Shown here: positions 5,547 to 31,974 of the stretch, in pieces
How the letters are laid out: the number at the start of each line of letters is the position of its first letter
How positions within the stretch are numbered: position 1 is the stretch's first letter
Assembly (NCBI GenBank): GCA_020060465.1
Contig: JAGVAD010000005.1
Coordinates: 46,003 to 110,002, forward strand
Direction: 5' to 3'
DNA: 64,000 bases
DNA from: Anaerolineales bacterium
Lineage (GTDB): Bacteria; Chloroflexota; Anaerolineae; Anaerolineales; UBA4823
Notes under the pieces: generated by a model
Seen by the model: only the letters and a program-made list of their open reading frames with translations
The model's database searches: none
What the model was told of the DNA's origin: nothing
Position numbers and translations under genes: made by a program

Positions 5547-5591
5547 TTCCATCCGGGCCTGGCATTGCGCCAGCGCCGCAAGGAGTTGGAA

Positions 5592-5978: not shown

Positions 5979-6037
5979 ATAGATATGCCATGAATCTGGT
6001 CGGTTATCTATGATCCGGACCAGAGAGGAGTTAGAAA

Positions 6038-6307
6038 GTGACCAATCAACCCCCTATGAACGAGGCTCAGCCCGGCGGGCGGCGCTTTTTCTCACGCCCC
6101 CGCGAGTGCATGTTCTGCACGGATAAAAATGCAGTGATTGACTATAAGTTGGTCGAAGTCTTACGCCGCTTTATAACCGATGATGGAAAAATCCGGCCGC
6201 GTCGGCAGACAGGCACCTGCGCCAAACACCAGCGCGAGCTGGCGCGTGCGATCAAACGCTCTCGCCACATAGCGTTGCTTCCCTATACCGGCGAAGTTTT
6301 ACGCTAA
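6038..6307 (+). CDS. rpsR: 30S ribosomal protein S18
   Basis: [60 protein letters not shown] is a classic S18 core. It sits in the conserved rpsF-ssb-rpsR order. Confidence 0.9.
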
Positions 6308-6376
6308 TTCCTTGACCAGGAGCATGGCTTGCCGCCTGCTCCTGGCGAAAATCTTTTTCCAACGAGGCATGATCGC

Positions 6377-11446: not shown

Positions 11447-11463
11447 AGAAAAAGAAGCCGCCA

Positions 11464-12255
11464 TCAATTGGGAGAATTTTGAGACGGATCATCCGCCCCA
11501 GGCGGTTTGGAAAGAGCGGCAGGCGCTTCAATTTCCTCTTGTTCAATGCGCTCCAGCGCAGCGCGGGCGGCTGCCTTGGCAGCAGCTTGTTTGCTGGGGC
11601 CTTCGCCGCGTCCGTAAATGCACCCGCCAATTTTCACTTCTACCTCGAAGGATTTCATATGCTCCGGGCCGCTGGTCAACACGGTCTGATAGACAGGCGG
11701 ACCAAAACCCATCGCCTGCACACGTTCTTGCAGCAGGCTTTTAGGATCCTGGTCGCTGTTGGTGATCAGGATTTCATTCACCGCATCGGCTAAAAGAGGT
11801 TCAATAAAGCGGGAAACCGCCTCCAAACCGCTATCCAGGTATAACGCTCCAACCACTGCTTCAAATGTCGCGCAGAGCAACGCTCGGCGCTGACGACCGC
11901 CGCCTTCACCTTCGCCGCGGCCCAGGCGCAACGCATTGCCAAAATGTAATTGATTGGCAAACTCGGCGAGTTGTTCGGTGCATACCAGCGCGGAGCGCAG
12001 GCGCGTCAGATCGCCCTCGCGCAATTCGGGAAATCTCTTATAGAGCCACGCGCCGACCAGAAAATCCAGCACTGCATCGCCCAAAAATTCCAAACGCTCG
12101 TTGTCTTCTAAGGTTTCATCGGGGTGTTCGTTTAGAAAAGAGCGATGGGTAAGCGCGCGAGTCAACAGCGAAATCCGGGTAAACTGCAAGTTCAGCCGAC
12201 GTGCAAATGCCTGTGGAGACTCGATCTCCATCGCGCCCTGAGTTGATCGCTTCAT
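11464..12255 (-). CDS. rnc: ribonuclease III
   Basis: It carries the signature ERLEFLGDAVLDFLVGAWLY and a C-terminal dsRBD (GPEHMKSFEVEVKIGG...GEGPSKQAAAKAAA). Confidence 0.9.
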   Translation of the reverse strand: MKRSTQGAMEIESPQAFARRLNLQFTRISLLTRALTHRSFLNEHPDETLEDNERLEFLGDAVLDFLVGAWLYKRFPELREGDLTRLRSALVCTEQLAEFANQLHFGNALRLGRGEGEGGGRQRRALLCATFEAVVGALYLDSGLEAVSRFIEPLLADAVNEILITNSDQDPKSLLQERVQAMGFGPPVYQTVLTSGPEHMKSFEVEVKIGGCIYGRGEGPSKQAAAKAAARAALERIEQEEIEAPAALSKPPGADDPSQNSPN

Positions 12256-16128: not shown

Positions 16129-16173
16129 GCGGAGAATTATAACAGGTGGATTTGCTCTACAGTAGCACTCTTG

Positions 16174-16574
16174 TGGCACAGGCTGAAGTCTGTGCTACCT
16201 GGTCACAGGCTAAAAGCCTGTGCTACTTGGTCACAGGCTGAAGCCTGTGCTACTTGGTCACAGGCTAAAAGCCTGTGCTGTGCTACCTGGTCACAGGCTA
16301 AAAGCCTGCGCTACTTGGTCACAGGCTAAAGCCTGCGCTACTTGGTCACAGGCTAAAGCCTGCGCTACTTGGTCACAGGCTAAAGCCTGCGCTACTTGGT
16401 CACAGGCTAAAGCCTGTGCGCTACTTGGTCACAGGCTAAAAGTCTGTGCTACTTGGTCACAGGCTAAAGCCTGCGCTACTTGGTCACAGGCTGAAGTCTG
16501 TGCTACCTGGTCACAGGCTAAAAGCCTGTGCTACCTGGTCACAGGCTAGTGGCACAGGCTTAAGCCTGTGCTAC
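16174..16574. repeat. tandem array of ~15 copies of a 27-28 bp hairpin unit (consensus TGGTCACAGGCTAAAGCCTGYGCTACY)
   Basis: Read directly from the sequence. There are 12 full TGGTCACAGG units of 27-33 bp, one truncated unit, and terminal TGGCACAGG variants, with no spacers. Each unit contains the palindrome CACAGGCT-(2-3 nt)-AGCCTGTG. Confidence 0.9.
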
Positions 16575-16861: not shown

Positions 16862-19834
16862 TCAGTATTCTGCCAGGGACAACACCACCCGGAACCCGAT
16901 GTAGTTGAGGAAGAGGTTGAGCGGATAGTACCTGCCGCGGTAGGCGCAGCGGGCGTCCTGTGGATGGGCGTTCCACGAGCCGCCACGCATCACCCGAGCG
17001 CCATCCGCTTGCAAGTCGTTGCGTCCATCCTCCGCGTGATAGGGGTATGGTTGGTAGAGGCTGAGTGTCCATTCCCAAACGTTGCCGCTCATATCAAGCA
17101 CATCGTAGGGGCTGGCGCCTTTGGGAAAGATGCCCACCGGCGAGGTCTGTTCGAGTTGGGTTTCGCTGTAATTGGCATGCTCGGGGGTGATGCGGTTGCT
17201 GCCCCAGGGATAGATGCGCCCGTCCGCGCCGCGCGCCGCTTTTTCCCATTGCGCCTCGCTGGGCAAGGAGAAACTTTCAGGGCGCTGCGCCGCTAGCCAG
17301 AAGGCGCGCTGCTCTGGAGAGAGGTCGTCCCGCGCCAGGTATTGTGAGCTAAGCGAGGCTAATTTCTCGCCCAGCCAGCGGCAGTAGGCCAACGCTTCAT
17401 ACCAGCTTACCCCCATCACGGGGCGGGTCAGCGCTCCCCCTCTGGCATCTCCCCAATCGTACGGCTGGCTGCGGTTGTTCCTCTGCTGCCAGTCCCAGCC
17501 CGATTCCGGCGGTGTCCAATATCGCCGCTCATCGTAGCCATGCTCGGCGATGAAGTGGGCGAATTGGGCGTTGGTAACCGGGTAACGGCTGATGTAGAAA
17601 GCGGGCAATTCCAGGGTGTGTGGGGGCTTTTCGTCGTTATCCGCCTGCTTGTCATTCTCGGCGCTGCCCATCCGAAATGGCCCGGCAGGGATATACACAA
17701 AGCCCAGGGTCGGTTCTGGCCGGGTGCGGTAAAATGCCGGCAGGCTGAAGGTCTTTTCGTCGAAGCGCGGGTCGCCCAGAGCGGCCAGGGTATCGCCCGC
17801 GCGGGCGCGCAGGGCAGCCGGCGCGTTGCATGCCGGGTCGGTGAGCGCGGCTTCCAACTTCCCCGCCAGTTTGCGGCGAATGGCTGGATCCGGTCGTTCA
17901 ATTTCCAAGACGGCGGCGCCCGCCAGTTCCAATCCCCCCAGTTGCAGCGCTCCCTCGCCGCGCAGATTCGAGAGCCAGTCGAGATACTTTTGGGCGAAAG
18001 GGGCATAATCCTGTTTGGCGAAGCCGTATATCAGCAACAGCGCCTCGCGCCACCAGGAATCCAGCACATAATCCCGCAGCAAGCCCAGCGATAGCTCGCG
18101 GTCTTTGGCTAACCGGCGCGCCGCCAGGAACTCCTGAAAGGTCAAATGGGCGAACTGGAAGAGTTCAGCGCGCTCTTCCAGTAATCCACCGCGGCTGCGC
18201 ACCGCTTTGATAAATTGATCCAACCTTTCTTTCGGCAGTTGAACGCTCAAGATTTCCCGCAAACGCGCTTCATCAACGGCAGCCCCGTTTTCCCCGTTGC
18301 GGTGCATTTCGAGCGCCAAATAAGCAAGCCACTCACGCTGTTCTTCCCAGGGGCCTCCCCAGTTGATCAATTCCTGACGGGCAGTATCCTCCTCCAGGTA
18401 TTGCGCCTGTAAGATGACCCGAACGACCGCTTCGTACAGGCGCGCCCGTTCGCGCGGCAATTCGGCCTCGCCCCATTTGACGCCGATCACCATGGTGGTC
18501 AACAAGGGTGTGCTGATCAGCGGGGGTTGATTTTGCCGTTCGTAGCGCTCATTGATGGTTCGAATAACAGAGGTAATGTCGGCAACCTGCGCCTCAACCT
18601 GAGTGGGGAACAATTGTTCACACCACCGACGCGCCAGATATTCGATTTGGTCGTCCTTCAGCTTGCACACATCCAGGCGGATAAAATCTTCGCTGAAGAT
18701 GGCGTTTTCTTTGTAGCCCGATTCACGTGCCGTGACGATGAACAGATTTCGCGGATAGATTTCGTTCGCCAGACGCTCGATTTCTTGGCGCGCCTGGCCG
18801 CGCTCTTCCTGGCTGACCACTTCATCCAGCCCATCCAACATCACCAGACAACCCCCGCCCACCAGCAGACGGTCAAAAAATTCATCCGCCAGGTCTTCAT
18901 CCGCTGTTTGGATCGCCTGGCTGCGTTTCTTGAGATACCATAAAATGAAACCCGCCAATGTCCCTGAACGCACTTTGGTAAGCACCTGGTCGGGCGACTC
19001 ATGGCACAGGCGCATGTATTCGCGCCGATAGCGCAGAGGAATGACCAGCGGCACCAGGGCGCGTCTCTGACTGGGCAAGTCGAAAGGCAGCGCCGTCTGG
19101 TGCAACGCATGGTCGGCTAATGAAGAAGCCAGAAAGGCCAGCAGGGTGCTTTTGCCGCTGCCCGCGCCGCCGATGATTGCCAGGCGGTCGCCCAGGGTCA
19201 GCATCTCCTTGAGGGCGATTTGTTCGCCTTCTGTTTGCCGCCTCTCGATTAATCGCAAAAAGGCTTTTTGCTCGGCGAATGGGTCGTCCTTGAATTTTTC
19301 TTGGGCCAGCTTTTCCACTTCGCTGCGCGCTGGCGGCGAAAGACGTTGCAAGGTAATGGGCACAAAGACGTCCGCCAGATTGCGCTTCTTGCGTTCTCCA
19401 GAGCGGCCCCACCCTTCCAAACCATACAAACGAGCCTGTCCAAAGGCTTTCTGCGCCCAGACGAAATAATCATACAGCAAACGCCGGAAGTCATCTTCCG
19501 ACATGCGCGGTTTGCCAGGCGGCGTCTGGAAAATCTGATACAGCACGACCCCGGTGTTGAGCCAGGAATGACTGACGGTTCCGCCGCTTGCAATTCCAGC
19601 ATTGTTTGCGTGTGTATTTGGCGCAGATTTCTCGCTCCGTCGGCTCAAGAACCAGAAGACCCCCGAAGCCAGCGACCCAATTGCCCACAGGATAGAGAGG
19701 AATGCATCTGCGCTCTGGATTAGCTCGCCGCGCGCGCCAAGAAAATTCATCAACGGCCGCCAGCCCAACCAGGTAACGATTGCCAGCAGCGCCAAAACGA
19801 GGGTGGTTCGTAGATAAGCCGACTTGTTTTTCAT
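16862..19834 (-). CDS. membrane-anchored NACHT-domain STAND NTPase with C-terminal FGE-sulfatase (SUMF1/DUF323-type) domain
   Basis: 990 aa. Two N-terminal TM helices are present. The NACHT domain shows Walker A IIGGAGSGKSTLLAFLA, Walker B CLVMLDGLDEV and the FIVTARESGY region. The last ~279 aa (nt ~16865-17701) are FGE-type (FVYIPAGPFRMGS...YPVTNAQF...MSGNVWEWT...RVMRGGSW...GFRVV). GGGAGG lies upstream of ATG 19834. Confidence 0.85.
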   Translation of the reverse strand: MKNKSAYLRTTLVLALLAIVTWLGWRPLMNFLGARGELIQSADAFLSILWAIGSLASGVFWFLSRRSEKSAPNTHANNAGIASGGTVSHSWLNTGVVLYQIFQTPPGKPRMSEDDFRRLLYDYFVWAQKAFGQARLYGLEGWGRSGERKKRNLADVFVPITLQRLSPPARSEVEKLAQEKFKDDPFAEQKAFLRLIERRQTEGEQIALKEMLTLGDRLAIIGGAGSGKSTLLAFLASSLADHALHQTALPFDLPSQRRALVPLVIPLRYRREYMRLCHESPDQVLTKVRSGTLAGFILWYLKKRSQAIQTADEDLADEFFDRLLVGGGCLVMLDGLDEVVSQEERGQARQEIERLANEIYPRNLFIVTARESGYKENAIFSEDFIRLDVCKLKDDQIEYLARRWCEQLFPTQVEAQVADITSVIRTINERYERQNQPPLISTPLLTTMVIGVKWGEAELPRERARLYEAVVRVILQAQYLEEDTARQELINWGGPWEEQREWLAYLALEMHRNGENGAAVDEARLREILSVQLPKERLDQFIKAVRSRGGLLEERAELFQFAHLTFQEFLAARRLAKDRELSLGLLRDYVLDSWWREALLLIYGFAKQDYAPFAQKYLDWLSNLRGEGALQLGGLELAGAAVLEIERPDPAIRRKLAGKLEAALTDPACNAPAALRARAGDTLAALGDPRFDEKTFSLPAFYRTRPEPTLGFVYIPAGPFRMGSAENDKQADNDEKPPHTLELPAFYISRYPVTNAQFAHFIAEHGYDERRYWTPPESGWDWQQRNNRSQPYDWGDARGGALTRPVMGVSWYEALAYCRWLGEKLASLSSQYLARDDLSPEQRAFWLAAQRPESFSLPSEAQWEKAARGADGRIYPWGSNRITPEHANYSETQLEQTSPVGIFPKGASPYDVLDMSGNVWEWTLSLYQPYPYHAEDGRNDLQADGARVMRGGSWNAHPQDARCAYRGRYYPLNLFLNYIGFRVVLSLAEY
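16877..17000 (-). other. DGR-type variable region (VR) at the 3' end of the NACHT-FGE gene
   Basis: This 124-nt segment is homologous to 20026-20146, with identical 27-nt and 24-nt flanks. In the core, 13 of 15 substitutions fall on adenines of the other copy. It encodes [33 protein letters not shown]. Confidence 0.75.
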
Positions 19835-19890: not shown

Positions 19891-20025
19891 GGTTGGATAT
19901 TCGGCCGGGCGTCGCCTCGCCAGGGGCAAACGCCGCGACCAGGGGCTGACCAGGCTGGCAAAGTTTCTAACGCTCCGTCCCGCCTCTGTAAAGGTTGGGA
20001 TTTACCGGCGTTTTCATTTCGCTAT

Positions 20026-20146
20026 GGACAACACCACCCGGAACCCGATGTTGTTGTTGAAATTGTTCGGATTGTTCCTGTTGCGGTAGGCGCAGCGGGC
20101 GTTCCGTGGATTGTTGTTCCACGAGCCGCCACGCATCACCCGAGCG
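20026..20146 (-). repeat. DGR-type template repeat (TR), Asn-codon (AAC/AAT) rich
   Basis: This 121-nt copy of the VR reads [32 protein letters not shown]. It lies inside a 77-aa TTG-started ORF (20014-20247) that lacks the rest of an FGE domain and has no RBS. Confidence 0.75.
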
Positions 20147-20288: not shown

Positions 20289-20366
20289 CGGATTTTCAAC
20301 AACGGATTTTTATAATGGAGAGCATTCGGATGGTTTTCCACTCATAGAGGGGAATTTGATCTGAAG

Positions 20367-20447
20367 TGGCACAGGCTTTAGCCTGTGCTACCTGGTCACA
20401 GGCTAAAAGCCTGTGCTACTTGGTCACAGGCTAAAAGCCTGTGCTAC
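20367..20447. repeat. second array (3 units) of the same hairpin repeat, same orientation as array 1
   Basis: TGGCACAGGCTTTAGCCTGTGCTACC, TGGTCACAGGCTAAAAGCCTGTGCTACT and TGGTCACAGGCTAAAAGCCTGTGCTAC. The cysW stop codon (20444-20446) lies inside the last unit. Confidence 0.9.
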
Positions 20448-21289
20448 GCGGGATTGCGCTCTTTGCGGCGCATCCAGTCTGCGCCCATCACCAGCAGCAG
20501 CGAGATCAGGCCCAACACCAGGGCGGCGCTGTAGGCGCCGATGTACTGGCGTTCATCCAGCGCTCGATAGATGTACAAGGTGGCGGTTTCGGTGCGCCCC
20601 TGGATGCCTCCACCGATCACCAACACCGCGCCGAACTCGCCCAGGGCGCGCGCCAGAGTCAGCGTCACGCCGTAGATGAAGCCCCAGCGCAACGCCGGCA
20701 GGGTCACCCGCCAGAAGGTCTGCCAGCCGCTGGCGCCCAGGGTGGCGGCGGCCTGCTCTTGCTGTACGCCGAAGTTCTCTAAGATGGGGATCAGTTCGCG
20801 CACCATGAACGGCAGGGTGACAAACAGGGTGGCCAGGATCATACCTGGAACAGCGAACGCCACGCGGATGTGAAGCGCATCGAGCAGAGGCGCAAACAGT
20901 CCATTGCGTCCGAAGAGCAGCAGCAGCATATAGCCCACCACCACCGGCGAGACGGCGAAGGGCATGTCTATCAAGCCGTTGATATACTTGCGCCCCGGAA
21001 AGCGGTCGCGCACCATCACCCAGGCGACAATGACGCCAAAGACGCTGTGAACCGCGACCACGATGGCGCTGATTTGCAGGGTGAGCCAAAAGGCTTTGAG
21101 CACCTCCGGCTGCGACAGCGTCTCCAGCGCCGCCCCCAGGCCCTCTCGGAACGCTCCGCTCACCAGGGCAACGATGGGCGCCAGGATCAACACCCCCACA
21201 TAGAGAGCCACCGCTCCAATCAAGAGCCAACGCACCCAGCGGTTGCTGGCCGGTGTGGGACGGGTCGTTTTGTTGGTATTGAGGTTCAT
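20444..21289 (-). CDS. cysW: sulfate ABC transporter permease CysW
   Basis: 281-aa 6-TM permease. The EAA-loop region ARALGEFGAVLVIGGGIQGRTETATLYIY resembles CysW. Its start overlaps the cysT stop by 4 nt. Confidence 0.8.
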   Translation of the reverse strand: MNLNTNKTTRPTPASNRWVRWLLIGAVALYVGVLILAPIVALVSGAFREGLGAALETLSQPEVLKAFWLTLQISAIVVAVHSVFGVIVAWVMVRDRFPGRKYINGLIDMPFAVSPVVVGYMLLLLFGRNGLFAPLLDALHIRVAFAVPGMILATLFVTLPFMVRELIPILENFGVQQEQAAATLGASGWQTFWRVTLPALRWGFIYGVTLTLARALGEFGAVLVIGGGIQGRTETATLYIYRALDERQYIGAYSAALVLGLISLLLVMGADWMRRKERNPA

Positions 21290-22167
21290 GAAAGGTTGCT
21301 CCGGCTGCGCCGCTGAAAAGCGTCCACGATCATCATCAGGCAGAAGGCAATGGCCAGCATCACCACCGAAACGGCGCTGGCGCCCAGCCGGTTCTCGGAC
21401 TCGACCTCGCCCAATACATAGACCGCCGCCGTTTGTGAATACATGGGAATATTGCCAGCCACAATGACGATGGAGCCGAATTCGCCGATGGCGCGGGCAA
21501 AGCTCAGCAGTGCGCCGCTCGCCATAGGCAGGATCAGCGGCGGCAAGGTGATGCGACGGAAGATCGTCCAGGCGTTCGCGCCCAGGGTGGCGGCGGCGTC
21601 TTCCTGCGTGCGGTCAAGGCTCATCAGCACGGGCTGGATGGCGCGTACCACAAAGGGAAAGGTGATAAACAGCAGCGCCAGGATGATCCCCGGCGGAGCA
21701 AAGATCACCGAGAGGCCCAGTTTTTGTTTCAACCACACGCCCAATGCCTGCTGCGGCCCGAACAGCACCACCAGCATCACGCCGGTCACTAGGGTGGGGA
21801 TGGAGAGCGGCAGGTCAACCACGCTGTTGAGCAGCGACTTGCCGGGAAATTCATAACGCACCAGCACATAAGCCGTTAGAGCGCCCATGCCGGTATTGAT
21901 GATTGTCATCACCGCCGCCGTCCACAAGGTCAGCTTCAGGGCGTGCCAGGCGATGGGATTGCTGACCTGCGCCCATAGACCACTCAGCCCGGCGCGCAGC
22001 CCGTCTTGCAGGATGACCAGCAAAGGGATGATGAGCATCACCGTCAGATAGGTGAGGGCAATCGAGCGCATCGTCCATCGCCCCCAGGGCAGTGGACGGC
22101 GGCTCACATTTTTACCTGCTGGTTGGCTCAGGCGGCGTTCCAGTGAAAGCGGAGGCGTCTTTTCCAT
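21286..22167 (-). CDS. cysT: sulfate ABC transporter permease CysT
   Basis: 293-aa permease. ARAIGEFGSIVIVAGNIPMYSQTAAVYV resembles CysT/CysU. Confidence 0.8.
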   Translation of the reverse strand: MEKTPPLSLERRLSQPAGKNVSRRPLPWGRWTMRSIALTYLTVMLIIPLLVILQDGLRAGLSGLWAQVSNPIAWHALKLTLWTAAVMTIINTGMGALTAYVLVRYEFPGKSLLNSVVDLPLSIPTLVTGVMLVVLFGPQQALGVWLKQKLGLSVIFAPPGIILALLFITFPFVVRAIQPVLMSLDRTQEDAAATLGANAWTIFRRITLPPLILPMASGALLSFARAIGEFGSIVIVAGNIPMYSQTAAVYVLGEVESENRLGASAVSVVMLAIAFCLMMIVDAFQRRSRSNLS

Positions 22168-22203: not shown

Positions 22204-24099
22204 TTAGCTTTCGATAATCAATGGATAGATCTGCGCGCCGATGAAATGCGAGCGCACAATCAGCGTCGCCCGGTCGTTGATCGTGTTCAATGCCTGCTCC
22301 ACCACGCCCGAAAGTGAAATTTGGCCTTTTTGGCCGGCCAGCGGCGCGCCCATAACCAATAAGTCATACCCGCCGCGCTTGACTTCCTGGGCGATGACCT
22401 CTACTGGCTGACCCTGATGAACAATCGCCTGCGCTGGGACGCCCAGCAATGCCAGCGACTGAATGCCGTCCTCCAGGAAACGCTCGGCGCGCCGCTTTGC
22501 ATCGGGATCGTTTCCGCTCAGCACAGAGAGCAGAGCCGCGTCGGCGCCCAGGTGGCGCACCAGGCGGCCGGCGAACAGCACATCGTCTTTGCCTGGCTCG
22601 CCTCTGGCGACGCAGATCAGGGCGTGACTGGGCGGCGCTTGCGGGCGCGGGATCAACAGCAAGTGATGCTCGCCCACCTGCAGAATCTGTTCCGCCAGGG
22701 GGATGTCTTCCTGCGGGTTGAACCCCAACACGATCAAATCGAACGGTTGTTGTTCGACCGCTTTGGTGATCGCCGCGGCGACGGGCTCCGGCGAAAGGCG
22801 CGCCTCCAGCGAGGCCAACCCGCTGCCGAGCTGCTTGCGCGCCTCCTGCAAATGCTCCTGCATCACCTCTTCTTTTTGCCCACAACCCAGCAGCGTCACG
22901 CGAGCATGGGCGAGGCGGGCAATTTGCCCGCCCAATTCGATTGCCGCCTGAGCGCGCAGTGAACCATCTGTGATAATCAAGAAACTCAACCCTGGATGCG
23001 CCAGGGCATGGATGCGATGGACGCCAACCCAGGCTTTTGCGCCTGGTCGGAGCGGAAAGCGCGCCGCCTGTTCCGGCGAGCGCGTGGCATCCACCAGGAT
23101 GGATTTGGTGCCAAACGGCGATGGCGGCGAGATGGGGCGCACATTGGGAATGGGCGGTAAGCGCAGCCGCAGCCGTTCGTAAGCCCCGCCAAACGAGACC
23201 TCCTCGACCTCCGCCTGCCCCAGGCGAGGGCAGTCCAGCGCTTTGGGTTCTGGCGCCAGGGCGACATCCTCCGGGCGGAACAGCACCTGAACGCGCCGCT
23301 CTTGCCCGGTTTCTAGGATCTCTTGCTCAATGGGAAAATGCAATGGCCCAACCGTAACGCCTTGTGAATTTACGTTACCTAACAACAAATTGGCTGACCC
23401 CAGGAAGGAGGCGACGAATTCGGTGCGCGGCCGTTGATAGAGGTCTTCCGGCGCGCCCACTTCGATCAAGCGCCCAAAGCTCATGATCCCCACCCGATCC
23501 GCCAGATCGAAGGCTTCTTCCTGATCGTGGGTGACAAAGATAGTGGCGATGCCCAACTGGCGCTGGATGGATTTCAAACTGCGGCGCAGTTCAATGCGAA
23601 TCTTGGCATCCAGCGCGCCCAGGGGTTCGTCCAACAGCAACACATCCGGGCGATAAGCCAGGGCGCGCGCCAGCGCCACGCGTTGTTGCTGACCGCCGGA
23701 TAACTGGCGCGGCATTCGGTCGCCCAGCCCCGCCAGGCCCACCAGCTCCAACAGCTCGTCGCGCCGCCGTTTGCGCTCTGCCGCGGGAATTTTACGGATG
23801 CTCAAACCGAACTCAATGTTTTCGGCAACGGTCATATATTGAAACAAAGCATAATTTTGGAAGACGAACCCCACCCTGCGTTGCTGCGTGGGCAGGTGGG
23901 TCACATCCCGCCCATGCAGCAAAATGCGTCCCTCGTCTGCATGAGTCAGCCCGGCGATGAGGCTCAGGATGGTGGTCTTGCCGCTGCCGCTTGAACCGAG
24001 CAGCACGAAGAATTCGCCGTCGCCCACTTCTAAAGAGACGTTATTCACCACCGGGTGCCCGTCATAACGCTTGGTCAGATGTTCGAGAATGATGGACAT
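22204..24099 (-). CDS. cysA: sulfate ABC transporter ATPase CysA fused to two C-terminal USP-like domains
   Basis: Walker A GSSGSGKTT, signature LSGGQQQRVALARAL and Walker B LLLDEP are followed by a TOBE-like segment. About 270 extra residues then form two universal-stress-protein-like repeats, the second ending LLVMGAPLAGQKGQISLSGVVEQAL...ATLIV. The start is at ATG 24099 (MSIILEHLTKRY). Confidence 0.8.
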   Translation of the reverse strand: MSIILEHLTKRYDGHPVVNNVSLEVGDGEFFVLLGSSGSGKTTILSLIAGLTHADEGRILLHGRDVTHLPTQQRRVGFVFQNYALFQYMTVAENIEFGLSIRKIPAAERKRRRDELLELVGLAGLGDRMPRQLSGGQQQRVALARALAYRPDVLLLDEPLGALDAKIRIELRRSLKSIQRQLGIATIFVTHDQEEAFDLADRVGIMSFGRLIEVGAPEDLYQRPRTEFVASFLGSANLLLGNVNSQGVTVGPLHFPIEQEILETGQERRVQVLFRPEDVALAPEPKALDCPRLGQAEVEEVSFGGAYERLRLRLPPIPNVRPISPPSPFGTKSILVDATRSPEQAARFPLRPGAKAWVGVHRIHALAHPGLSFLIITDGSLRAQAAIELGGQIARLAHARVTLLGCGQKEEVMQEHLQEARKQLGSGLASLEARLSPEPVAAAITKAVEQQPFDLIVLGFNPQEDIPLAEQILQVGEHHLLLIPRPQAPPSHALICVARGEPGKDDVLFAGRLVRHLGADAALLSVLSGNDPDAKRRAERFLEDGIQSLALLGVPAQAIVHQGQPVEVIAQEVKRGGYDLLVMGAPLAGQKGQISLSGVVEQALNTINDRATLIVRSHFIGAQIYPLIIES

Positions 24100-24185
24100 A
24101 GACAGTTCCCTGAGTTGAGCGCGCGCCAATGACCGTTTACGCGCCAACCTTGAAGCCAGTTTACCCCAGGGGAATGACAGGCGGC

Positions 24186-24217
24186 GTGATGAAGTTGTGA
24201 TAAAGTTGTGACAAAGG
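24186..24217 (-). promoter_or_regulatory. conserved 32-nt motif upstream of cysA (copy 1 of 2)
   Basis: The minus strand reads CCTTTGTCACAACTTTATCACAACTTCATCAC, with TCACAAC direct repeats spaced 11 bp. It is 26/32 identical to 28605-28636. Confidence 0.45.
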
Positions 24218-24269: not shown

Positions 24270-24971
24270 CTATGGCGTTCCGCCTGGATCGCGTTTTAAG
24301 CCATAGCCGCGCCCGGGGATGGTTTCGATAAAGACCGGGGAAGAGGGGTCGGGTTCAATCTTGCTGCGCAGCCGGCGCACCAACTGGCGCAGCATGTCGC
24401 GGCTGCCGCCGCCCGGCCCCCAAATGTGGTCAATCAGCTCCTGGATAGTCAGGATATGCCCGGCATGGAGCATCATATATTCCAGCAGGCGGCATTCCAG
24501 GGCGGTGAGAGAAACGGGCTCTTGCTCTCCGCAGCGCGCTTCGCGGCGGTCGGCGTCCAGGGTGAGCTTGCCGGCTTGCAGCGTGCTGGAAATGGGGCCG
24601 CGCGCCGTCCGACGCAACACTGCCTGTACACGCGCCACCAGTTGACGCGGGCTGAACGGCTTGAGGATATAATCATCCGCGCCGACTTTCAAGCCGTAAA
24701 CAATGTCGTCTTCGTCTTCGCGCACGGTGAGCAGGATGATCGGCACATCGGATTGCTCGCGGATTTTTCGGCAGATGGTAAACCCATCTAAGGGGGGCGA
24801 TGTTTTCGGTAAGTTGACATCCAAGATAATAATGTCCGGTTGATCCTCCATCCAGCGGCGCAGGGCGCTTTCGCCGTCTTGCGCCTGGCTGACCTGGAAC
24901 CCCTCCCGCCGCAGCGTGAAGCTGACCAGGTCAGCTAACACTCGATCATCGTCCACCACCAACGCTTTCAC
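24270..24971 (-). CDS. OmpR-family response regulator
   Basis: The receiver domain (VVDDDRVLADL...IILDVNLP) is followed by a winged-helix output domain (LTALECRLLEYMMLHAGHILTIQELIDHIWG...IETIPGRGYGL). Confidence 0.85.
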   Translation of the reverse strand: MKALVVDDDRVLADLVSFTLRREGFQVSQAQDGESALRRWMEDQPDIIILDVNLPKTSPPLDGFTICRKIREQSDVPIILLTVREDEDDIVYGLKVGADDYILKPFSPRQLVARVQAVLRRTARGPISSTLQAGKLTLDADRREARCGEQEPVSLTALECRLLEYMMLHAGHILTIQELIDHIWGPGGGSRDMLRQLVRRLRSKIEPDPSSPVFIETIPGRGYGLKRDPGGTP

Positions 24972-27148
24972 AACTCACCGCCTTCGCTATCTTGCGTCGC
25001 TAAGGGGATCGTGAACCAGAAGAGTGCGCCGCCATTCACCTGGTTTTCCACACCAACCCGCCCGCCCTGCGCCTCTACAATCGCCTTGACCACCGATAGC
25101 CCCAGCCCGGCGCCGTATTCCGCGCGATGGTTATCCATTTGTAAATGGGCAAAGCGCGTAAAGACGTCCTTCAGATGTTCGGGCGGCACGCCCGGTCCGC
25201 AATCGGCGACCGAAAGACGCGCTTCCGTAGGGCTGAATTCCACCTGTAAGACGATTTGCGAACCAGGCGGGCTCCATTTGATGGCATTGGACAACAGGTT
25301 CACCAAAACCTGACCGGTGCGCCGCGCATCCGCGAAAACAAACGGCGTTTCGCTCGGCAGGCGAACCTCAAGCCGCTGATCATATTTTTCCAGCAGTGGT
25401 TGCATGACGCGCGCCGCATCCTGCACCACTGCTGCCAGGCTGGTGGGTTTGAGGCGTACGCGGAAACGCCCGGCTTCGATGCTGGCGCCTTCCAACAGGT
25501 TGTCAATCAGCGTTTGCAAACCCAGTGTTCCTAACCGCAGGGAATTGAGCAGCTCTGCCAGTTCCTCCTGACTGAGGGATGGCAATTGATCAATCAATAA
25601 CTCAATCGAAGCCGCCAGCGCAGAGAGCGGGGTGCGAAATTCGTGGGTAATGTTAGCTAAGAAATCGCCCAACAAACGGCGGATGGCTTGTTCATCGCTG
25701 ACATCACGCAGCACCAACGCTGTCTCTGCTCTACCGGCCTCGGGCGGCGCCCGATGGGCGCGGGTGATTGCCAGCGTGGCCTGCCGCCCCTGGCTGAGGG
25801 CGACCGTGATTGTGCGCTTTCCCCCTGGTTCTGGCAGCGCCTGGCTGAATTTCTCGTCGCTGCCCGGCAAATGAAAAAGCTCATCAATGTGCTTGCCGAT
25901 GACCAACGATTTATTCCAGCCGGTGATCTGTTCCGCGCCCTGGCTGAAAAACGTGATTCGCCCCTTCGGATCCAGGGTGAGAATTCCCTCCACCACCGTT
26001 TCGAGCAAGGATTCGCCCCAGGCTTTCTCTTTGCGCAGCTCTTCTAATGAATGTTGCAGAGCAATGCGGGCATCCTCCAGGGCAAATGAAACCTGGGCGA
26101 TCTCACGGATGCGAGTGTGGGCGGAAACCGGCGTTTCCAGATCGCCTTTGCGCAGAGCAACGGCGGCCGCCCACAACCGTTCAAGTGGCTGGCTGAGGCG
26201 CTTTGCCAACAGGAAAGCCAGAGCTGCGCCCACCAAAATCACTAAAAAAATGCCGCCGCCCATGGCGCGGGTGAGTTGTCGCTGCACCTCGAGGACGTTT
26301 GCCGCCGATAAAGCTGCCAGGATTTCCAAGTCGCTTTGTTCAAATGGCATCCGTAATGCAAAATACGGCGTCTCATCCAAAACGAACGATGCAGTTTCCC
26401 TGACCCCAGCGCTGAGCTCGTTTTTGGCGCTCAGTTGGGTGGCAATCGTCTGCCAGTCCTGCGCTCCACCGGGCAGACTGCTGGCGATATACCGCTTGCC
26501 AGAGAGCAGGATAATCTCCAGCCCGGATTGTCGTCCCAGTTCAACCATGAAAGATTGATCCAGCGCGCTCCCAACCAGGACGATATAAGCTGCGCCCAAT
26601 TCTCCGCCGACGTCTTCGACAGGTTGGGCGGCGAGCATCCAGCCAGGTGAATCTGAACCTCCAGACGCCAGAAGCGTCTGGGTGGAGGGGGGATCATGGC
26701 ACGCCTCTGCGGGCAGAGTTTGACCAGCCTGGGCGGTGATCTGTCCCTTGGGGTTGCAAATTGCCACCACATCCAGCCCGGAGCCGCTTTGCAAGGCGTT
26801 CAAGTAGGTTTGCAAATTTTGCAGGTCGTTTTGTTCCAAAAGCTGGCGCAAGGTTGGCCGTTGAGCGCTCAAGATCGCCAGATTGCTGAGGTCGCTCAGG
26901 TTAGCCGAGAGGCTGGCCTGGATCGTCTGGCCGCCTTGCTCCACCAACGCCCAGGCCTGGCGGTTAAGTTGCTGGCGCAGCAGCCAGATCGCCGGCGCGC
27001 CGATCGCTCCAACCGTCAAAATGATCAGCGAGACGGTCATCAGCGTCATCTGCGCGGGCAGGCTCATCTGGCCAGGTCGTGGATATTTATGCATAACAGA
27101 TAACCGCTCACTCGGCGTCACAAGGTTATGGATGAAGAAGGTTTGCAA
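24968..27148 (-). CDS. sensor histidine kinase (periplasmic sensor, HAMP, PAS, HisKA, HATPase_c)
   Basis: Two TM helices flank a ~240-aa extracytoplasmic domain. The H-box is ITHEFRTPLSAL, with N/G boxes near the C-terminus. It overlaps the response regulator start by 4 nt. The exact start is uncertain (27148 or 27094). Confidence 0.8.
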   Translation of the reverse strand: MQTFFIHNLVTPSERLSVMHKYPRPGQMSLPAQMTLMTVSLIILTVGAIGAPAIWLLRQQLNRQAWALVEQGGQTIQASLSANLSDLSNLAILSAQRPTLRQLLEQNDLQNLQTYLNALQSGSGLDVVAICNPKGQITAQAGQTLPAEACHDPPSTQTLLASGGSDSPGWMLAAQPVEDVGGELGAAYIVLVGSALDQSFMVELGRQSGLEIILLSGKRYIASSLPGGAQDWQTIATQLSAKNELSAGVRETASFVLDETPYFALRMPFEQSDLEILAALSAANVLEVQRQLTRAMGGGIFLVILVGAALAFLLAKRLSQPLERLWAAAVALRKGDLETPVSAHTRIREIAQVSFALEDARIALQHSLEELRKEKAWGESLLETVVEGILTLDPKGRITFFSQGAEQITGWNKSLVIGKHIDELFHLPGSDEKFSQALPEPGGKRTITVALSQGRQATLAITRAHRAPPEAGRAETALVLRDVSDEQAIRRLLGDFLANITHEFRTPLSALAASIELLIDQLPSLSQEELAELLNSLRLGTLGLQTLIDNLLEGASIEAGRFRVRLKPTSLAAVVQDAARVMQPLLEKYDQRLEVRLPSETPFVFADARRTGQVLVNLLSNAIKWSPPGSQIVLQVEFSPTEARLSVADCGPGVPPEHLKDVFTRFAHLQMDNHRAEYGAGLGLSVVKAIVEAQGGRVGVENQVNGGALFWFTIPLATQDSEGGEL

Positions 27149-27295: not shown

Positions 27296-28387
27296 TCAAG
27301 GGTTCAGCCGCTGCACTTTACCCACTGTAAGGGTATAGATGCCGTTTTCGCCAAAGAAAGCTGGAGAGGCTTCCTTCCAGCCGCCAAAGTATTCAATGGT
27401 AAAAAGGTCTTCCACAGATGGGTATTTGCTGGCGACCGCGCTCGCTGTCTGAGCATCCACCGGGCGCAGCCCATATTTGGCAAAGATTTGCTGCGCTTCT
27501 TGCGTGAACAGAAAAGCTACAAACGCCTCTGCTGCCTGGCGGACGCCGTGTTTCTCAGCGTAAACATCTACGACCGCCACCGGGTTCTCGATCAGGATGG
27601 TTGAGCGTGGGATCACCAGTTCGTATTTCTCGCCGTTCATCTGACCCACCAGCACTTCGTTCTCATAGGTGATCGCCACGTCGCCAACGCCCTTCTCAAA
27701 ATTGGTGATGCTCTCACGGGCGCCTTTATCCATCACGCTGACGTTGTTCAGCACCGATAGAAGAAAGGCAGTAGCTGCTTCATCGTCATCCTTTGGAACG
27801 CCCTTCACAAAGCCGCGCTTGGCTGCGCCGTATAACGCCAGGATATTCCACATCGCTCCGCCGCTGGTCTTGGGATTGGGCGTCAGGATTTCGATGCCCG
27901 GTTTTCCCAGATCGGCCCAATCGTGAATTGCCTTAGGATTGCCCTCCCGCACAGCAAAAGATACGATCGAGGTGCTCACCATGCCTTTATAAGCGCCGCT
28001 CTTCCAATCATGGGTGATCAAGCCGGCGTCTTGAATGCGGGTGATGTCCGCCTCCAGCGATAAGGCGGCTATATCTGCCTCAAAACCTTCTACAATGGCG
28101 CGCGACTGCGCCCCAGAACCCAGGTAAGATTCTTCAAAAATAACATCCTGACCGGTCTTTTCCTTCCATTGTTTTTGGAAGATGGGGATCAGCTCCTTAT
28201 ACGCCTCGCGCGGGGTGGTGTACGCCCCCAGCGTCAATTTGATCTGGCCTCCTTGCGCTACACCGCTGGTTGGCGCAGCGCTGTTTTGGCCGCAAGCAGC
28301 CAGAGAGGTCATTAAGAAGGCTGCCAGCAGTAGATAGATGATCAGCAGACGGATTGGATAGTGTCCTTTGAATTGATCCGTGTTCAT
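27296..28387 (-). CDS. sbp: sulfate ABC transporter substrate-binding lipoprotein
   Basis: It has a lipobox (LAAC) and Sbp/CysP-type motifs: SYLGSGAQSRAIVEGFEADIAALSLEAD, REGNPKAIHDWADL and LTPNPKTSGGAMWN. Confidence 0.85.
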   Translation of the reverse strand: MNTDQFKGHYPIRLLIIYLLLAAFLMTSLAACGQNSAAPTSGVAQGGQIKLTLGAYTTPREAYKELIPIFQKQWKEKTGQDVIFEESYLGSGAQSRAIVEGFEADIAALSLEADITRIQDAGLITHDWKSGAYKGMVSTSIVSFAVREGNPKAIHDWADLGKPGIEILTPNPKTSGGAMWNILALYGAAKRGFVKGVPKDDDEAATAFLLSVLNNVSVMDKGARESITNFEKGVGDVAITYENEVLVGQMNGEKYELVIPRSTILIENPVAVVDVYAEKHGVRQAAEAFVAFLFTQEAQQIFAKYGLRPVDAQTASAVASKYPSVEDLFTIEYFGGWKEASPAFFGENGIYTLTVGKVQRLNP

Positions 28388-28604
28388 GACAAACCTCCTG
28401 GTTCGTTAATCTTGAATGCCCGTAGATTGAGTGGGCGCTCTCCAGCTAAGATTATTGACCGTCAGATCATTTGGTTATGAACGTCCCGCAGGTTTCTAAT
28501 CGCACAGGCTTGTTTTTAGGGGAACCCGCGAGACGTTTTGCACCAACGAGAGAAACCAATTTCGGTGAATATCAATAGTTTACCGGAGACCCGTGACAGA
28601 CAAA

Positions 28605-28636
28605 GTGATGAAGTTGTTATATTGCTGTGACAAAAG
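28605..28636 (-). promoter_or_regulatory. conserved 32-nt motif upstream of sbp (copy 2 of 2)
   Basis: The minus strand reads CTTTTGTCACAGCAATATAACAACTTCATCAC, ~220 nt upstream of the sbp start. Confidence 0.45.
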
Positions 28637-28668: not shown

Positions 28669-31600
28669 TTACGCTGACTTTTTGGGCTGCTTAAGCGGCA
28701 GCGCCAGATAGAAGGTGCTGCCTTTGCCCAACTGACTTTCTGCCCAGGCGCGCCCGCCGTGGCGTTCGGCGATAGACTTGACAATCGCCAGTCCTAAACC
28801 AGTGCCGCGCTCGTCTTTGGATCCCTGCTGCGCCCCGCGATAAAATTTCTCGAACAGGCGCGGCATATCCATCGGCGAGATGCCGCTGCCGTTATCAATG
28901 ACTTGAAAAACAACGCCGATGGGCTGCACTTGAACCCGCACCAAAACTTTGCCGTCCGCCTTGGTGTATTTGATGGCATTCTCCACCAGGTTGTGCAGCG
29001 CCTGCTGCAACAAAGCCTGATCGGCCTCCACCAGCGGCACCGTGTGCGCCGGCAATTCACTGGTCAGTTGGACGCGCTTTTGTGACGCCTGGAGCTGTAG
29101 AGCGCTTACCACCCGCTCGACCACATCCACCACCGGCACCATTTCGAGTTGCAAGCCCACGCCGGCTTCAATGCGTCCCAGGTCCAGCAGGTTGTTCACC
29201 AGGCGCGACATGCTTTCTACGCCGCTGACAATTTTGCGCACATAACTGATCTGCTGCTCGTTAAGCTGGCCGACCATCTCCAACATGCTGGCGTAGCCAC
29301 GCATCAGGGTCAATGGCGAGCGTAGATCATGGCTGACGGTGGAAACAAACTCGGATTTCAAGGCGTCAATTTCCTTGAAGTGCGTCACATCGCGCAGCAC
29401 ACAGACCCGCCCAACGCGCCGGCCTTCGGCTAATACCGGCGTGGCGCTGGCCAGGAATACCCGTCCGCCGGGCAAGGCCACCTCAACCATCTGTTTTTCA
29501 TGGGCGCCGTCGCCGTTTTCGCTGCGCAGCAGGTCAACCAGACTACGCACCGAGATGACCTTATCCAGGAGCTGCCCTTCGTAAGTCTCTGCGCCCAATC
29601 CCAATACCTGCCAGGCTGCCGGGTTCGCCAACAACAGGCGCTCGTTTTCATCGGTCACCAGCACAGGATCTGGGGTGGAAGCCAGGATGGATTCCAATCG
29701 CTTGCGCCCGATCTCGGCGTTCAAGAATAAGCGAGCGTTGGCTGCTGCCAGCGCCGCCTGACCACCCAACGTGACCAGGAAACGCACCTCTTCCTCAGAG
29801 AAGGTGTGCGGTTGGTCATAGGCTACCCAGAGCGCCCCGTAGTATTGATTTTCATGTTTCAAGGCTACTGCCATCAACGATTCGGGGCGCGGCGCGCCGG
29901 GGATGAAGTTCAACATGCGTGGCCGGTTGGTATTGGATAAAACAAGGCGATCCTGTTGCCGGCTGAGGTTCAAAATCTGTTCATCCAGGTTCTGGTACAG
30001 GTTTTGCGCCGGGCCAGCGCCAAAACGCGCCGGCGTCGCGGCAGCCCATTCCAGATCGGGGAGCATGCTGGACGCTAACACCACCCGCGCGGAGCTGGCG
30101 CCCGAACCCAGCGCCGATTCCAACACCGGCTGAATGGCCTCGGAAAATTCCAGGCTGGAGGCGACGCCCTGACTGACCACTAACAGGCGATTCAGTTCAT
30201 CCAAACGTGCTTTCAGGCTGACGCGCATTTGCTCAAAGGCGCGGCTCAATTGGCCGACCTCATCCGCGCTGTTGATGGTTACCGGTTGCTCCAATTGCCC
30301 CTCTGCCAGGCGCCCAGCTTCAGCAGCCAGTTTTTCGAGCGAACGCGTGATCACATTCAACCCCAGCCGGATGATGAGGACGCCAATCAGCGAGAGCAGG
30401 GCGATCATGCCCAGCAACGGCGCGGCGATCGTGAGGGCGATTTGCTGCACGCGATAGGCTGGAACTACCAGGACAATTGACCAGGGCTGGCCTTGCGCCG
30501 GATGGATGGCAACCAGCACTCGCGTTCCGTCCTCGGCGGTATCATCGTAGAATGCGCTCTGGCGTCCGGGCTGGCTGGTGAACGTCTGCATCACGCGTTC
30601 GGGGTTGGGATGCGCCAGGATGCGATTGTTTTCATCTAATAGCATCCCCTGACCATCCGCGCCGGCGACCCTGTTAAGGCTGGCGAGAATCGGCTGCGTG
30701 AGGGGATTGGTCACCAGGTCGCTGCGCCCAATCAAGACGCGGCGCGCCCGGTTTTGTGAGTCAAACACCGCAGCAATAAAGGATGTTTGAGCGGTGGTCT
30801 GCCCATTGGCGGGCGGCGCATTGTAGTATTGAAAAGGCAGCCCGTTCAGCGCCGTGTTCACCGCCACCAGCTCGTCCAGGGGCGCTTGCTTGCCGACGTA
30901 ATAGCTGGTTGGATAGCTGGCGATCGTCTCCGCGTTCTCGTCCAGCAAGGTCAATTGATTGAAAAAGGGCGCTTTTTTAATGTCTTGAGCCAGCAAATTT
31001 TCCACCGCCAGCCGATTGTTGCTCAGCAAAATCGGATCAGCGGCAAGCTGCAGGATCAAAGTCTGGCCGGTCTCCAGATAATAAGGCACCCCTTGCGCAG
31101 CGACTTCGGCGGCGTTGGTCATCTGCGCCTCTAACATATCTCGGGCGACTCGCCCGGCGACGAACCAGTCGCCAGCCATCAATGTAACAATCAGGATGAG
31201 CGCCAGCGGCGCCATACTGACGATGAAGCGCGTTTGCAGGCTGCGTTCGGATGGAGATGGCTCCAGGGGTGCAGCAACGGGCCAGGCGCCGGGCGCTATC
31301 AGTTGGATCAATTGCATCACCAGCCCGGCAATCAACAGCTCGCTGACTACCGCCAGCCAAATCCCCGCCAGGTTGGTCAGGGCGTAATCCAGGCGGCTGA
31401 CTAACAGCCCGGGTGAAGTGACGAGCGCGACCAATAGATGCAACGCCGGGAAGACCAACGCCATCAGCCCAGCAGCAATCAAGGGACGTCTCGCAGCTCG
31501 ATAAAAGAATGTGCGGTAACGTTGACGCAACAGGGCGCTCAACAGAGCGGCGATCAGCCCCATTTCCAGCGCATAGAATGGATTATGGTAATGCCAGCCA

Positions 31601-31974
31601 GCGATGATCAATCCGCTCAACAACGCCAACGCTGAGGCGGATAGCGGTCCCAACAATCCAGCCGCCAACGCCCAGGGGATGGCGGCCATGAACATGACGA
31701 CCGGTTCTGCAGGCGCGGCGATGATCCCGGGCGGCGGCAAGCCCGGATTAATTGAAAAACGCGCGCCTAGATACAGGCTGGCAAAGGGGGTAATGAGCAG
31801 CAGAATGATAAACAATGCCCATTGGCCGCGGTGGAAAGAAGCGTTATATCTTCGCCCTGTCCAGAGAAGCGCCAGAAGCGCGCAAATCCCCAAAAAAAGC
31901 CCCAACCAACCAACCAACCCTGGCGGAGGGTCGAGATAAAGGGCTGCCGTGATCAATGTCAAAATTGGGGTCAT
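28669..31974 (-). CDS. large multi-domain sensor histidine kinase (polytopic N-terminus, extracytoplasmic domain, HAMP, GAF, PAS, HisKA, HATPase_c)
   Basis: 1101 aa. The first ~260 aa contain about 8 TM helices. The H-box is VSHDLRSPLTLM and the C-terminus carries GTGLGLAIVKSIAERHGG. No cognate regulator is adjacent. Confidence 0.8.
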   Translation of the reverse strand: MTPILTLITAALYLDPPPGLVGWLGLFLGICALLALLWTGRRYNASFHRGQWALFIILLLITPFASLYLGARFSINPGLPPPGIIAAPAEPVVMFMAAIPWALAAGLLGPLSASALALLSGLIIAGWHYHNPFYALEMGLIAALLSALLRQRYRTFFYRAARRPLIAAGLMALVFPALHLLVALVTSPGLLVSRLDYALTNLAGIWLAVVSELLIAGLVMQLIQLIAPGAWPVAAPLEPSPSERSLQTRFIVSMAPLALILIVTLMAGDWFVAGRVARDMLEAQMTNAAEVAAQGVPYYLETGQTLILQLAADPILLSNNRLAVENLLAQDIKKAPFFNQLTLLDENAETIASYPTSYYVGKQAPLDELVAVNTALNGLPFQYYNAPPANGQTTAQTSFIAAVFDSQNRARRVLIGRSDLVTNPLTQPILASLNRVAGADGQGMLLDENNRILAHPNPERVMQTFTSQPGRQSAFYDDTAEDGTRVLVAIHPAQGQPWSIVLVVPAYRVQQIALTIAAPLLGMIALLSLIGVLIIRLGLNVITRSLEKLAAEAGRLAEGQLEQPVTINSADEVGQLSRAFEQMRVSLKARLDELNRLLVVSQGVASSLEFSEAIQPVLESALGSGASSARVVLASSMLPDLEWAAATPARFGAGPAQNLYQNLDEQILNLSRQQDRLVLSNTNRPRMLNFIPGAPRPESLMAVALKHENQYYGALWVAYDQPHTFSEEEVRFLVTLGGQAALAAANARLFLNAEIGRKRLESILASTPDPVLVTDENERLLLANPAAWQVLGLGAETYEGQLLDKVISVRSLVDLLRSENGDGAHEKQMVEVALPGGRVFLASATPVLAEGRRVGRVCVLRDVTHFKEIDALKSEFVSTVSHDLRSPLTLMRGYASMLEMVGQLNEQQISYVRKIVSGVESMSRLVNNLLDLGRIEAGVGLQLEMVPVVDVVERVVSALQLQASQKRVQLTSELPAHTVPLVEADQALLQQALHNLVENAIKYTKADGKVLVRVQVQPIGVVFQVIDNGSGISPMDMPRLFEKFYRGAQQGSKDERGTGLGLAIVKSIAERHGGRAWAESQLGKGSTFYLALPLKQPKKSA

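Follow-up and report, generated by a model that had tools for sequence, protein, structure and literature searches.

A tandem universal stress protein module fused to a CysA-type sulfate transporter ATPase in Chloroflexota: conserved architecture, a non-canonical pocket signature and a possible role in gating sulfate import

CysA proteins, such as those of Escherichia coli and Alicyclobacillus acidocaldarius (PDB 1z47), consist of an ATP-binding cassette (ABC) domain with all ABC motifs and a C-terminal all-beta domain, and their genes are found in operons with cysT, cysW and the gene for a sulfate-binding protein. The subject of this study is a gene of this kind, designated cysA-USP, which is located on the minus strand (22204..24099) of a 64,000-nucleotide stretch of DNA from an Anaerolineales bacterium (GenBank assembly GCA_020060465.1, contig JAGVAD010000005.1, positions 46,003 to 110,002). 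The whole of this stretch is referred to as the window, and feature coordinates are given in it. CysA of A. acidocaldarius is 355 amino acid residues long, in agreement with the length of about 350 residues that the initial annotation of this DNA gave for a typical CysA. Different from it, CysA-USP is 631 residues long and comprises the ABC ATPase, a beta regulatory domain and about 265 extra residues that form two domains with the universal stress protein (USP) fold. In addition, the beta domain of CysA-USP carries a conserved Pro-rich insertion (LPPIPxVRPIxPP), and its scores are under the NCBIfam cutoffs for CysA. Moreover, a two-component system adjoins the gene rather than a CysB-type regulator, none of which was seen beside the locus.

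Tandem USPs possess two USP domains per chain that are arranged as a pseudo-dimer. They include TTHA0350 (3ab7/3ab8), Rv2623 (3cis/2jax), an Archaeoglobus fulgidus protein (3loq) and UspE. All of these are free-standing proteins, whereas the pair in CysA-USP forms the C-terminal part of an ABC ATPase, and the sequence identities between the two are only 14–22%. The canonical ATP motif is present in each domain of Rv2623, whereas neither USP domain of CysA-USP possesses it. USP-fold proteins have also been functionally tied to individual transporters: the ABC transporter Rv1747 is a target of Rv2623 (PMC5549992), and TeaD (3hgm) is tied to TeaABC, a tripartite ATP-independent periplasmic (TRAP) transporter. 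Rv2623 and TeaD are, however, separate polypeptides and both are canonical ATP binders, whereas the USP pair studied here is covalently linked to the ATPase. Furthermore, Rv1747 is an exporter that is contacted via its FHA domain, whereas CysA-USP belongs to an importer.

Additional domains that are C-terminal to the ATPase and present in both subunits are found in MetN (C2), ModC and MalK (TOBE-type), OpuA/OpuC (tandem CBS) and the cyanobacterial NrtC/CmpC. They bind ligands or partners, and their effect on the closure of the ATPase dimer is one of trans-inhibition or activation. Different from these, the additional domains of CysA-USP have a USP sensory fold and are added onto the TOBE-type domain instead of replacing it. 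Similar to CysA-USP, the transporters KCC, NKCC and NCC have a tandem USP-like cytoplasmic domain fused to them at the C-terminus, which is regulatory there and matched the fold of the CysA-USP tail with E-values of 3e-7 to 2e-5. These are eukaryotic secondary transporters, however, with template modeling (TM) scores of 0.5–0.59, identities of 10–14% and large insertions. According to a review published in 2023, USP–transporter fusions are common and no UspA–transporter fusion has been characterized for transporter regulation (PMC10710835). Such fusions are a recognized class, and the architecture of CysA-USP is already visible in public annotation; its distinctive feature is a non-canonical pocket with a GEPGK loop. 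Our literature search found no paper on CysA-USP or on any fusion between an ABC ATPase and a USP, nor any on an ABC importer with a USP sensory fold, in line with the initial annotation, whose author was not aware of a characterized example.

The gene cysA-USP lies in an uninterrupted open reading frame (ORF) of the minus strand (22204..24147). Its ATG at 24099, which yields the 631-residue protein, is preceded by AGGGA at the spacing right for a ribosome-binding site, and an alternative TTG at 24147 would yield 647 residues. A public homolog, P0268, is 95% identical to CysA-USP and likewise 631 residues long. The ORF, the start codon with its ribosome-binding site and this homolog agree on 22204–24099, which were exactly the coordinates of the initial annotation. 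The ABC nucleotide-binding domain occupies residues 1–236 (23392..24099, minus strand). ABC_tran (PF00005) was matched at residues 18–160 (1.5e-36), and all motifs were intact, including Walker A (GSSGSGKT, 35–42), the Q-loop with Q81 (FVFQ, 78–81), the signature (LSGGQ, 133–137), Walker B with the catalytic Glu (LLLDEP, 154–159) and the H-loop with H191 (VTHD, 189–192). The best sequence match in PDB was CysA 1z47 (2.6e-75, over residues 10–312). Residues 237–367 (22999..23391, minus strand) form an all-beta regulatory domain of the CysA/TOBE type. The Pfam matches to TOBE_2 and CysA_C_terminal at residues 237–316 were weak and below threshold; the assignment is also based on the alignment to 1z47, on sequence conservation and on the full-length AlphaFold2 (AF2) model, in which residues 237–367 were all beta strands with predicted local distance difference test scores (pLDDT) of about 75–93. 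The domain is followed by a linker in which H368-P-G is invariant, and few stretches in the alignments of CysA-USP are as conserved as this linker (RIHALxHPG). Together with the Pfam and NCBIfam matches and the full-length homologs, these features show that cysA-USP is a single genuine gene, which encodes the ATPase subunit of a predicted sulfate/thiosulfate ABC importer of the CysTWA-Sbp type.

The two USP-fold domains, USP1 and USP2, occupy residues 372–483 (22651..22986) and 492–615 (22255..22626), respectively, both on the minus strand. In the whole protein, Usp (PF00582) was matched at residues 500–600 with 36.6 bits (cutoff 24), and the score rose to 40.5 bits when the tail was searched alone. 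USP1 searched alone gave 22.1 bits, which is just under the cutoff, besides a weak match to ETF. The family profiles of USP1 and USP2 were homologous to each other (hhalign probability of 95.9%, E-value of 5.7e-9, 112 columns). The AF2 model of residues 361–631, built with 84 homologs, had a pLDDT of 90.8 and a predicted TM score (pTM) of 0.89. It consisted of two beta–alpha units with five strands each and agreed with the definition of the USP fold, which is an alpha/beta fold with a five-stranded parallel sheet and four helices. Both units were reproduced in the full-length AF2 model. When the tail model was compared with PDB by Foldseek, the top 22 matches were all tandem-type USPs (TTHA0350, Rv2623, A. 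fulgidus 3loq, PA1789 and UspE) with TM scores of 0.58–0.72. The best of them, 3ab8/3ab7, 3cis, 3loq and 2jax, had a probability of 1.00 and TM scores of 0.68–0.72 over the whole model. They were followed by the C-terminal USP-like domains of KCC/NKCC and by single USPs such as TeaD, which was also the best PDB match of the USP1 profile and best or near-best for both USP profiles. The tail is thus modeled as a USP pair in a pseudo-dimeric arrangement like those of TTHA0350 and Rv2623. The initial annotation had proposed two C-terminal USP-like domains from the sequence, and this proposal is borne out by Pfam for USP2, where Usp scored above threshold, and by hhalign, AF2 and Foldseek for the pair.

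The distribution of this architecture was assessed in GTDB with one genome per species. Relatives of the tail were encoded by 265 genomes, of which the best 80 loci were kept for comparison. All of these 80 were from metagenome-assembled genomes (MAGs) of Chloroflexota, including Anaerolineales, Caldilineales, Ardenticatenaceae, Ca. Amarolinea aalborgensis and a few labeled Herpetosiphonaceae or Roseiflexaceae. The Walker A motif and the USP pair were in one stop-free frame in 71 of them. A full-length search identified more than 100 public proteins of 620–665 residues that were 71–95% identical to CysA-USP and had precomputed ABC_tran and Usp domains. They had been named automatically as "sulfate transport system ATP-binding protein," "ATP-binding cassette domain-containing protein" or "hypothetical protein." Among 1.84 billion cluster representatives, the tail had 462, 200 and 58 relatives at E-values of at most 1e-3, 1e-10 and 1e-30, respectively. 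About 20 of these representatives were full-length (600–643 residues), and their USP modules were 23–50% identical to that of CysA-USP. Two of these full-length proteins belong, according to their NCBI names, to Acidobacteriota (Ca. Polarisedimenticolia) and Fidelibacterota (Ca. Neomarinimicrobiota). Conservation of the architecture thus extends over several orders of Anaerolineae-type Chloroflexota (Anaerolineales, Caldilineales and Ardenticatenaceae), and at least two other phyla have members with it.

Three of the full-length relatives, P0122, P0128 and P0169, kept the beta domain and the tandem USP, while their Walker A, signature and/or Walker B motifs were degenerate. In P0122, for instance, these motifs read LLSPPQNGSS, LSPEQ and LLLDDP. 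Judged from these sequences, the three proteins may be catalytically dead paralogs or heterodimer partners. In addition, one Chloroflexota MAG (L064) contained two cysA-USP genes about 4 kb apart (4909–6804 and 9804–11709 in that locus), with another cysT after the second one.

Although the module evolved faster than the ABC domain (median identities among relatives were 56 and 80%, respectively), many of its invariant residues were kept. These residues cluster on the beta1 and beta4 loops of USP2, which are the most conserved part of the module; they were assigned to one pocket by their sequence positions in the USP fold and not by distances in the model. The beta1 loop of USP2 reads C-V-A-x-G-E-P-G-K-D-D where ATP-binding USPs have x-x-D-x-S. 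The position of the ribose-binding Asp is variable and is followed by the family-specific GEPGK loop (residues 500–504, 22588..22602, minus strand), which the alignments place at the beta1–alpha1 position. E501, P502 and K504 were invariant in the alignments, a GEPGK-like string was found in 77 of 82 related loci, and it persisted in relatives with identities of only 23–35%. The second part of the pocket is a degenerate Gly loop (G584-A-P-L587...G598-V-V; 22300..22350, minus strand), which is the positional equivalent of G-x2-G-x9-G-[ST] in ATP-binding USPs. The HMMER alignment to MJ0577 (1mjh) pairs D-L-L-V-M-G584-A-P-L587-A-G-Q-K-G-Q-I-S-L-S-G598-V-V of USP2 with D-I-I-I-M-G-S-H-G-K-T-N-L-K-E-I-L-L-G-S-V-T. 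The first Gly was invariant and the last Gly, G598, was kept. The second Gly was replaced by Leu in USP2 and most relatives, with a conserved Pro before it (G-x-P-L in 72 of the 77 related ORFs scored); moreover, the Ser/Thr was replaced by Val and the loop was one residue longer. The pocket signature of the family is written as C-x-x-x-G-E-P-G-K-[DE]-D on the beta1 loop plus G-x-P-L on the beta4 loop. USP1 retained the canonical T-D-G-S of beta1 (377–380, with D378 as the Asp) and had a conserved GEHH at residues 476–479. Its beta4–alpha4 loop was, however, about six residues shorter and without the Gly motif. The canonical G-x2-G-x9-G-[ST] was absent from both USP1 and USP2, and USP2 lacked the beta1 Asp as well. 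Conserved His and Arg residues of CysA-USP include R340, H364, H368, H398, R400, H478, H479, R512, R515 and H516.

The initial annotation had described the string VMGAPLAGQKGQISLSGVV, which is located at residues 582–600, as a recognizable nucleotide-binding motif of the second domain. This description was right with regard to the place of the motif in the fold. The chemistry, however, differs from that of a nucleotide-binding USP, with Leu for Gly, Val for Ser/Thr and GEPGK for the Asp. Judged from its conservation, the module is under selection, and the invariant residues kept on the pocket loops of an otherwise faster evolving module speak for a binding function that has been maintained, and against a relic.

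In type I importers, the C-terminal domains of both ATPase subunits adjoin beneath the transporter and control the closure of the ATPase dimer, as in MalK, ModC, MetN and the tandem CBS domains of OpuA/OpuC. By analogy, the tandem USP of CysA-USP is probably a cytoplasmic regulatory module. Two CysA subunits under CysT/CysW would place their C-terminal extensions side by side, and either the occupancy of a ligand pocket or the association of USPs between the subunits would favor or hinder closure of the ATPase dimer, through which sulfate import would be tuned post-translationally. The sensing site would most likely be the pocket of USP2, where USPs bind ATP. Given the lack of the classical ATP motif, the binding mode of the ligand probably differs from that in USPs of the MJ0577 type. 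The candidate ligands are an adenine nucleotide in a non-canonical binding mode, a nucleotide of the sulfur pathway, such as adenosine 5'-phosphosulfate (APS) or 3'-phosphoadenosine 5'-phosphosulfate (PAPS), or an anion. Post-translational gating of sulfate import, as suggested in the initial annotation, is plausible on these grounds, and with moderate confidence we favor the full proposal that it would be ligand-dependent and operate via the predicted USP2 pocket of the fused tandem USP.

Several points weigh against this proposal. Both USP domains lack the canonical ATP motif, and we only infer the regulatory role and the ligand binding of the tail. The full-length AF2 model was poor in the ABC part (pLDDT below 50 at residues 1–74 and 189–235, pTM of 0.54), and because of this low confidence no conclusion on the packing of the USP domains against the ATPase was drawn from it. 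Finally, CysA-USP scored below the NCBIfam cutoffs for CysA (PRK10851, 311.9 vs. 502) and for the sulfate ATPase (TIGR00968, 311.3 vs. 342.75).

One alternative, in line with the nucleotide- or stress-sensing module of the initial annotation, is that USP2, and perhaps USP1, binds ATP, ADP, AMP or cyclic AMP in the standard USP manner and couples import to the energy or stress status of the cell. Adenine nucleotides are commonly bound by USP-fold domains, and sensing of the energy status has been proposed for UspA–transporter fusions (PMC10710835). The loss of the motif would not by itself preclude nucleotide binding, given that TTHA0350, the closest structural match, was crystallized with ATP in both domains although no motif is detectable in it (PMC12159084). 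The retention of the first and last motif Gly in USP2 and of D-G-S on beta1 of USP1 would also fit. Binding in the standard manner nevertheless appears unlikely: USP2 departs from the motif at the second Gly, the Ser/Thr and the loop length, its ribose-binding Asp position is variable and followed by GEPGK, and the phosphate loop is altogether absent from USP1.

Another alternative is a ligand-free module for protein–protein contacts, which would either lock the two CysA subunits together, similar to the regulatory-domain dimers of MalK and FbpC, or dock a partner. The neighboring histidine kinase is possibly such a partner, in which case the transporter would report its activity to the kinase as PstB/PhoU do for PhoR. 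A homologous pair of histidine kinase and response regulator was found beside cysA-USP in 53 of the 80 related loci (counted as a homolog of the kinase or of the regulator at most 6 kb away), and the USP domain of KdpD is reportedly a docking site. Moreover, tandem USPs form dimers of pseudo-dimers (PMC12159084), and the regulation of an ABC transporter by Rv2623 occurs through protein–protein contact (PMC5549992). The strongest conservation, however, is seen on those loops which in other USPs make up the ligand pocket, and not on an obvious surface patch, and in 27 of the 80 loci, several of which are short contigs, neither kinase nor regulator was within 6 kb. We therefore regard a purely ligand-free module as improbable too.

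A more specific version of the ligand-dependent proposal, quite unlikely in our judgment, is that the USP2 pocket has been re-tooled for a signal of the sulfur status, which could be APS/PAPS or sulfate held by the Lys at the helix N-terminus, and/or that the module relays the activity of the transporter to the neighboring kinase. If the pocket were re-tooled in this way, sulfate import would be under direct feedback inhibition and a new class of ligand would be added to the USP fold. If the relay existed, the transporter, the kinase, the OmpR-type regulator and the triple TCAC box described below would form a sulfate-sensing circuit like that of Pst/PhoU/PhoR.

The control of bacterial transporters after their synthesis is poorly understood, and few modules are fused to transporters, or encoded beside them, as commonly as USP domains. 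CysA-USP offers a clean test case, in which a well-understood type I ABC importer is covalently linked to a tandem USP whose non-canonical pocket is sharply conserved. It also offers natural variants by the hundreds, some of which are apparently ATPase-dead, and a defined input, the sulfur status. Once identified, the ligand would reveal a function for a type of USP pocket without the ATP motif and would show how sulfate assimilation is controlled in Anaerolineae, which abound in wastewater and sediments.

The transported substrate was assessed from the genes around cysA-USP, as the scores of the ATPase under the curated CysA cutoffs leave the sulfate assignment to its partners. On the minus strand, the order of the locus is sbp, histidine kinase, response regulator, cysA-USP, cysT and cysW. 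The gene sbp (27296..28387) encodes a substrate-binding lipoprotein of the Sbp/CysP type for sulfate/thiosulfate (TIGR00971, 250.1 bits, cutoff 155.5), which scored only 33 bits against the ModA model, below the cutoff. The sulfate permease genes are cysT (21286..22167; TIGR02139, 248.5 bits, cutoff 246.1) and cysW (20444..21289; TIGR00969, 297.9 bits, cutoff 240), both on the minus strand. The gene cysA-USP was the sole ABC ATPase gene of the operon, and a second CysA-like ATPase was not found in the 64-kb window. The genes sbp, cysT and cysW also adjoined cysA-USP in 77 of the 80 related loci, where the commonest order was HK-RR-cysA-USP-sbp-cysT-cysW (24 loci; HK, histidine kinase; RR, response regulator). 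Based on these neighboring genes, the substrate is predicted to be sulfate/thiosulfate, the two of which are not separable here. It is very unlikely that the importer takes a related oxyanion (thiosulfate, molybdate or tungstate) or a phosphonate instead, with the USP module regulating that uptake. Such a substrate would agree with the top NCBIfam match of CysA-USP, which was PhnT2 (354.1 bits, cutoff 457.7), and with the fact that the ATPase was below every NCBIfam equivalog cutoff. The binding protein, however, passed the sulfate model and not that of ModA, CysT passed an equivalog cutoff, CysW passed the cutoff of the sulfate permease subfamily, and the best PDB match of the ATPase was a CysA.

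That a sequencing frameshift or a lost stop joined cysA to a separate tandem-USP gene, which the initial annotation had named as a way in which its claim could fail, is almost certainly wrong and effectively refuted by the single frame in 71 of the 80 GTDB loci and by more than 100 independent full-length proteins, as well as by the conservation of the linker. The gene was nevertheless split in some public assemblies. Of the nine GTDB loci without one stop-free frame, four were cut by contig ends (L025, L052, L055 and L078) and five had broken frames (L020, L049, L058, L061 and L069). It was also split in L001 and L002, which come from one ENA sample (ERZ25039533). The genes for EF-G, UvrB and DAO were broken on the same contigs, which indicates that the splits in L001 and L002 are assembly indel errors and not biology. 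A search with the tail only gave almost solely fragments as homologs. No free-standing version of the module was seen among the relatives of about 280–310 residues that were inspected; all of them started inside the beta domain and are fragments, and a free-standing ancestor of the module was rejected on this ground.

The two genes between sbp and cysA-USP, both on the minus strand, were identified by Pfam and synteny as those for a sensor histidine kinase with a periplasmic domain, HAMP, PAS, HisKA and HATPase_c (24968..27148) and for a response regulator of the OmpR/PhoB family (24270..24971). The regulator gene was directly upstream of cysA-USP in 39 of the 80 related loci. This arrangement suggests a two-component system that is dedicated to the sulfate-uptake locus. 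An Rfam scan of the window gave no hits, hence no riboswitch was identified at the locus.

The intergenic regions upstream of cysA-USP (24158..24215) and of sbp (28577..28634), both on the minus strand, contained a common element of about 58 nucleotides that reads TTTGTCACAnCnnTATnACAACTTCATCAC, then CTGTCA, then GGTAAACT. The element is made up of three direct repeats of TCAC(A) with a spacing of 11 bp, as in binding sites of the OmpR/PhoB type. A degenerate form of this three-repeat pattern matched only these two sites in the window, whereas shuffled sequences gave 0.4 matches on average. The exact string was matched in L010 only among the related loci, for which the degenerate pattern was needed; with it, 34 of 76 related Chloroflexota loci (including L003, L005, L010 and L015) proved to have the element upstream of cysA-USP, where about 0.06 matches were estimated by chance. 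The box is likely a binding site of the adjacent OmpR-type regulator, as predicted from its repeats. Its presence at both sites suggests that the adjacent two-component system controls the transcription of the locus, separately from any control by the USP module and probably via the boxes before sbp and cysA-USP. The co-conserved two-component system and the promoter box suggest a sulfate regulon that is organized unlike the CysB paradigm.

Immediately upstream of the sbp promoter is a gene for another sensor kinase (28669–31974, minus strand) of 1101 residues with dCache_1, HAMP, GAF, PAS, HisKA and HATPase_c domains. Directly downstream of the transporter operon, a gene on the minus strand (16862–19834) encodes a 990-residue NACHT NTPase with a C-terminal FGE-sulfatase domain (formylglycine-generating-enzyme-like). 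Between that gene and cysW, a segment of about 130 nucleotides (20016–20146) is an 82–85% identical copy of its 3' end (16867–17000) and looks like the remnant of a gene fragment. Finally, a palindromic unit of 27–28 nucleotides (TGGTCACAGGCTAAAAGCCTGTGCTACT), which resembles repetitive extragenic palindromic (REP) elements, was found in arrays at 16164–16550 and 20366–20463. The latter array extends into the 3' end of cysW, which has its stop at 20444, and is possibly the terminator of the operon.

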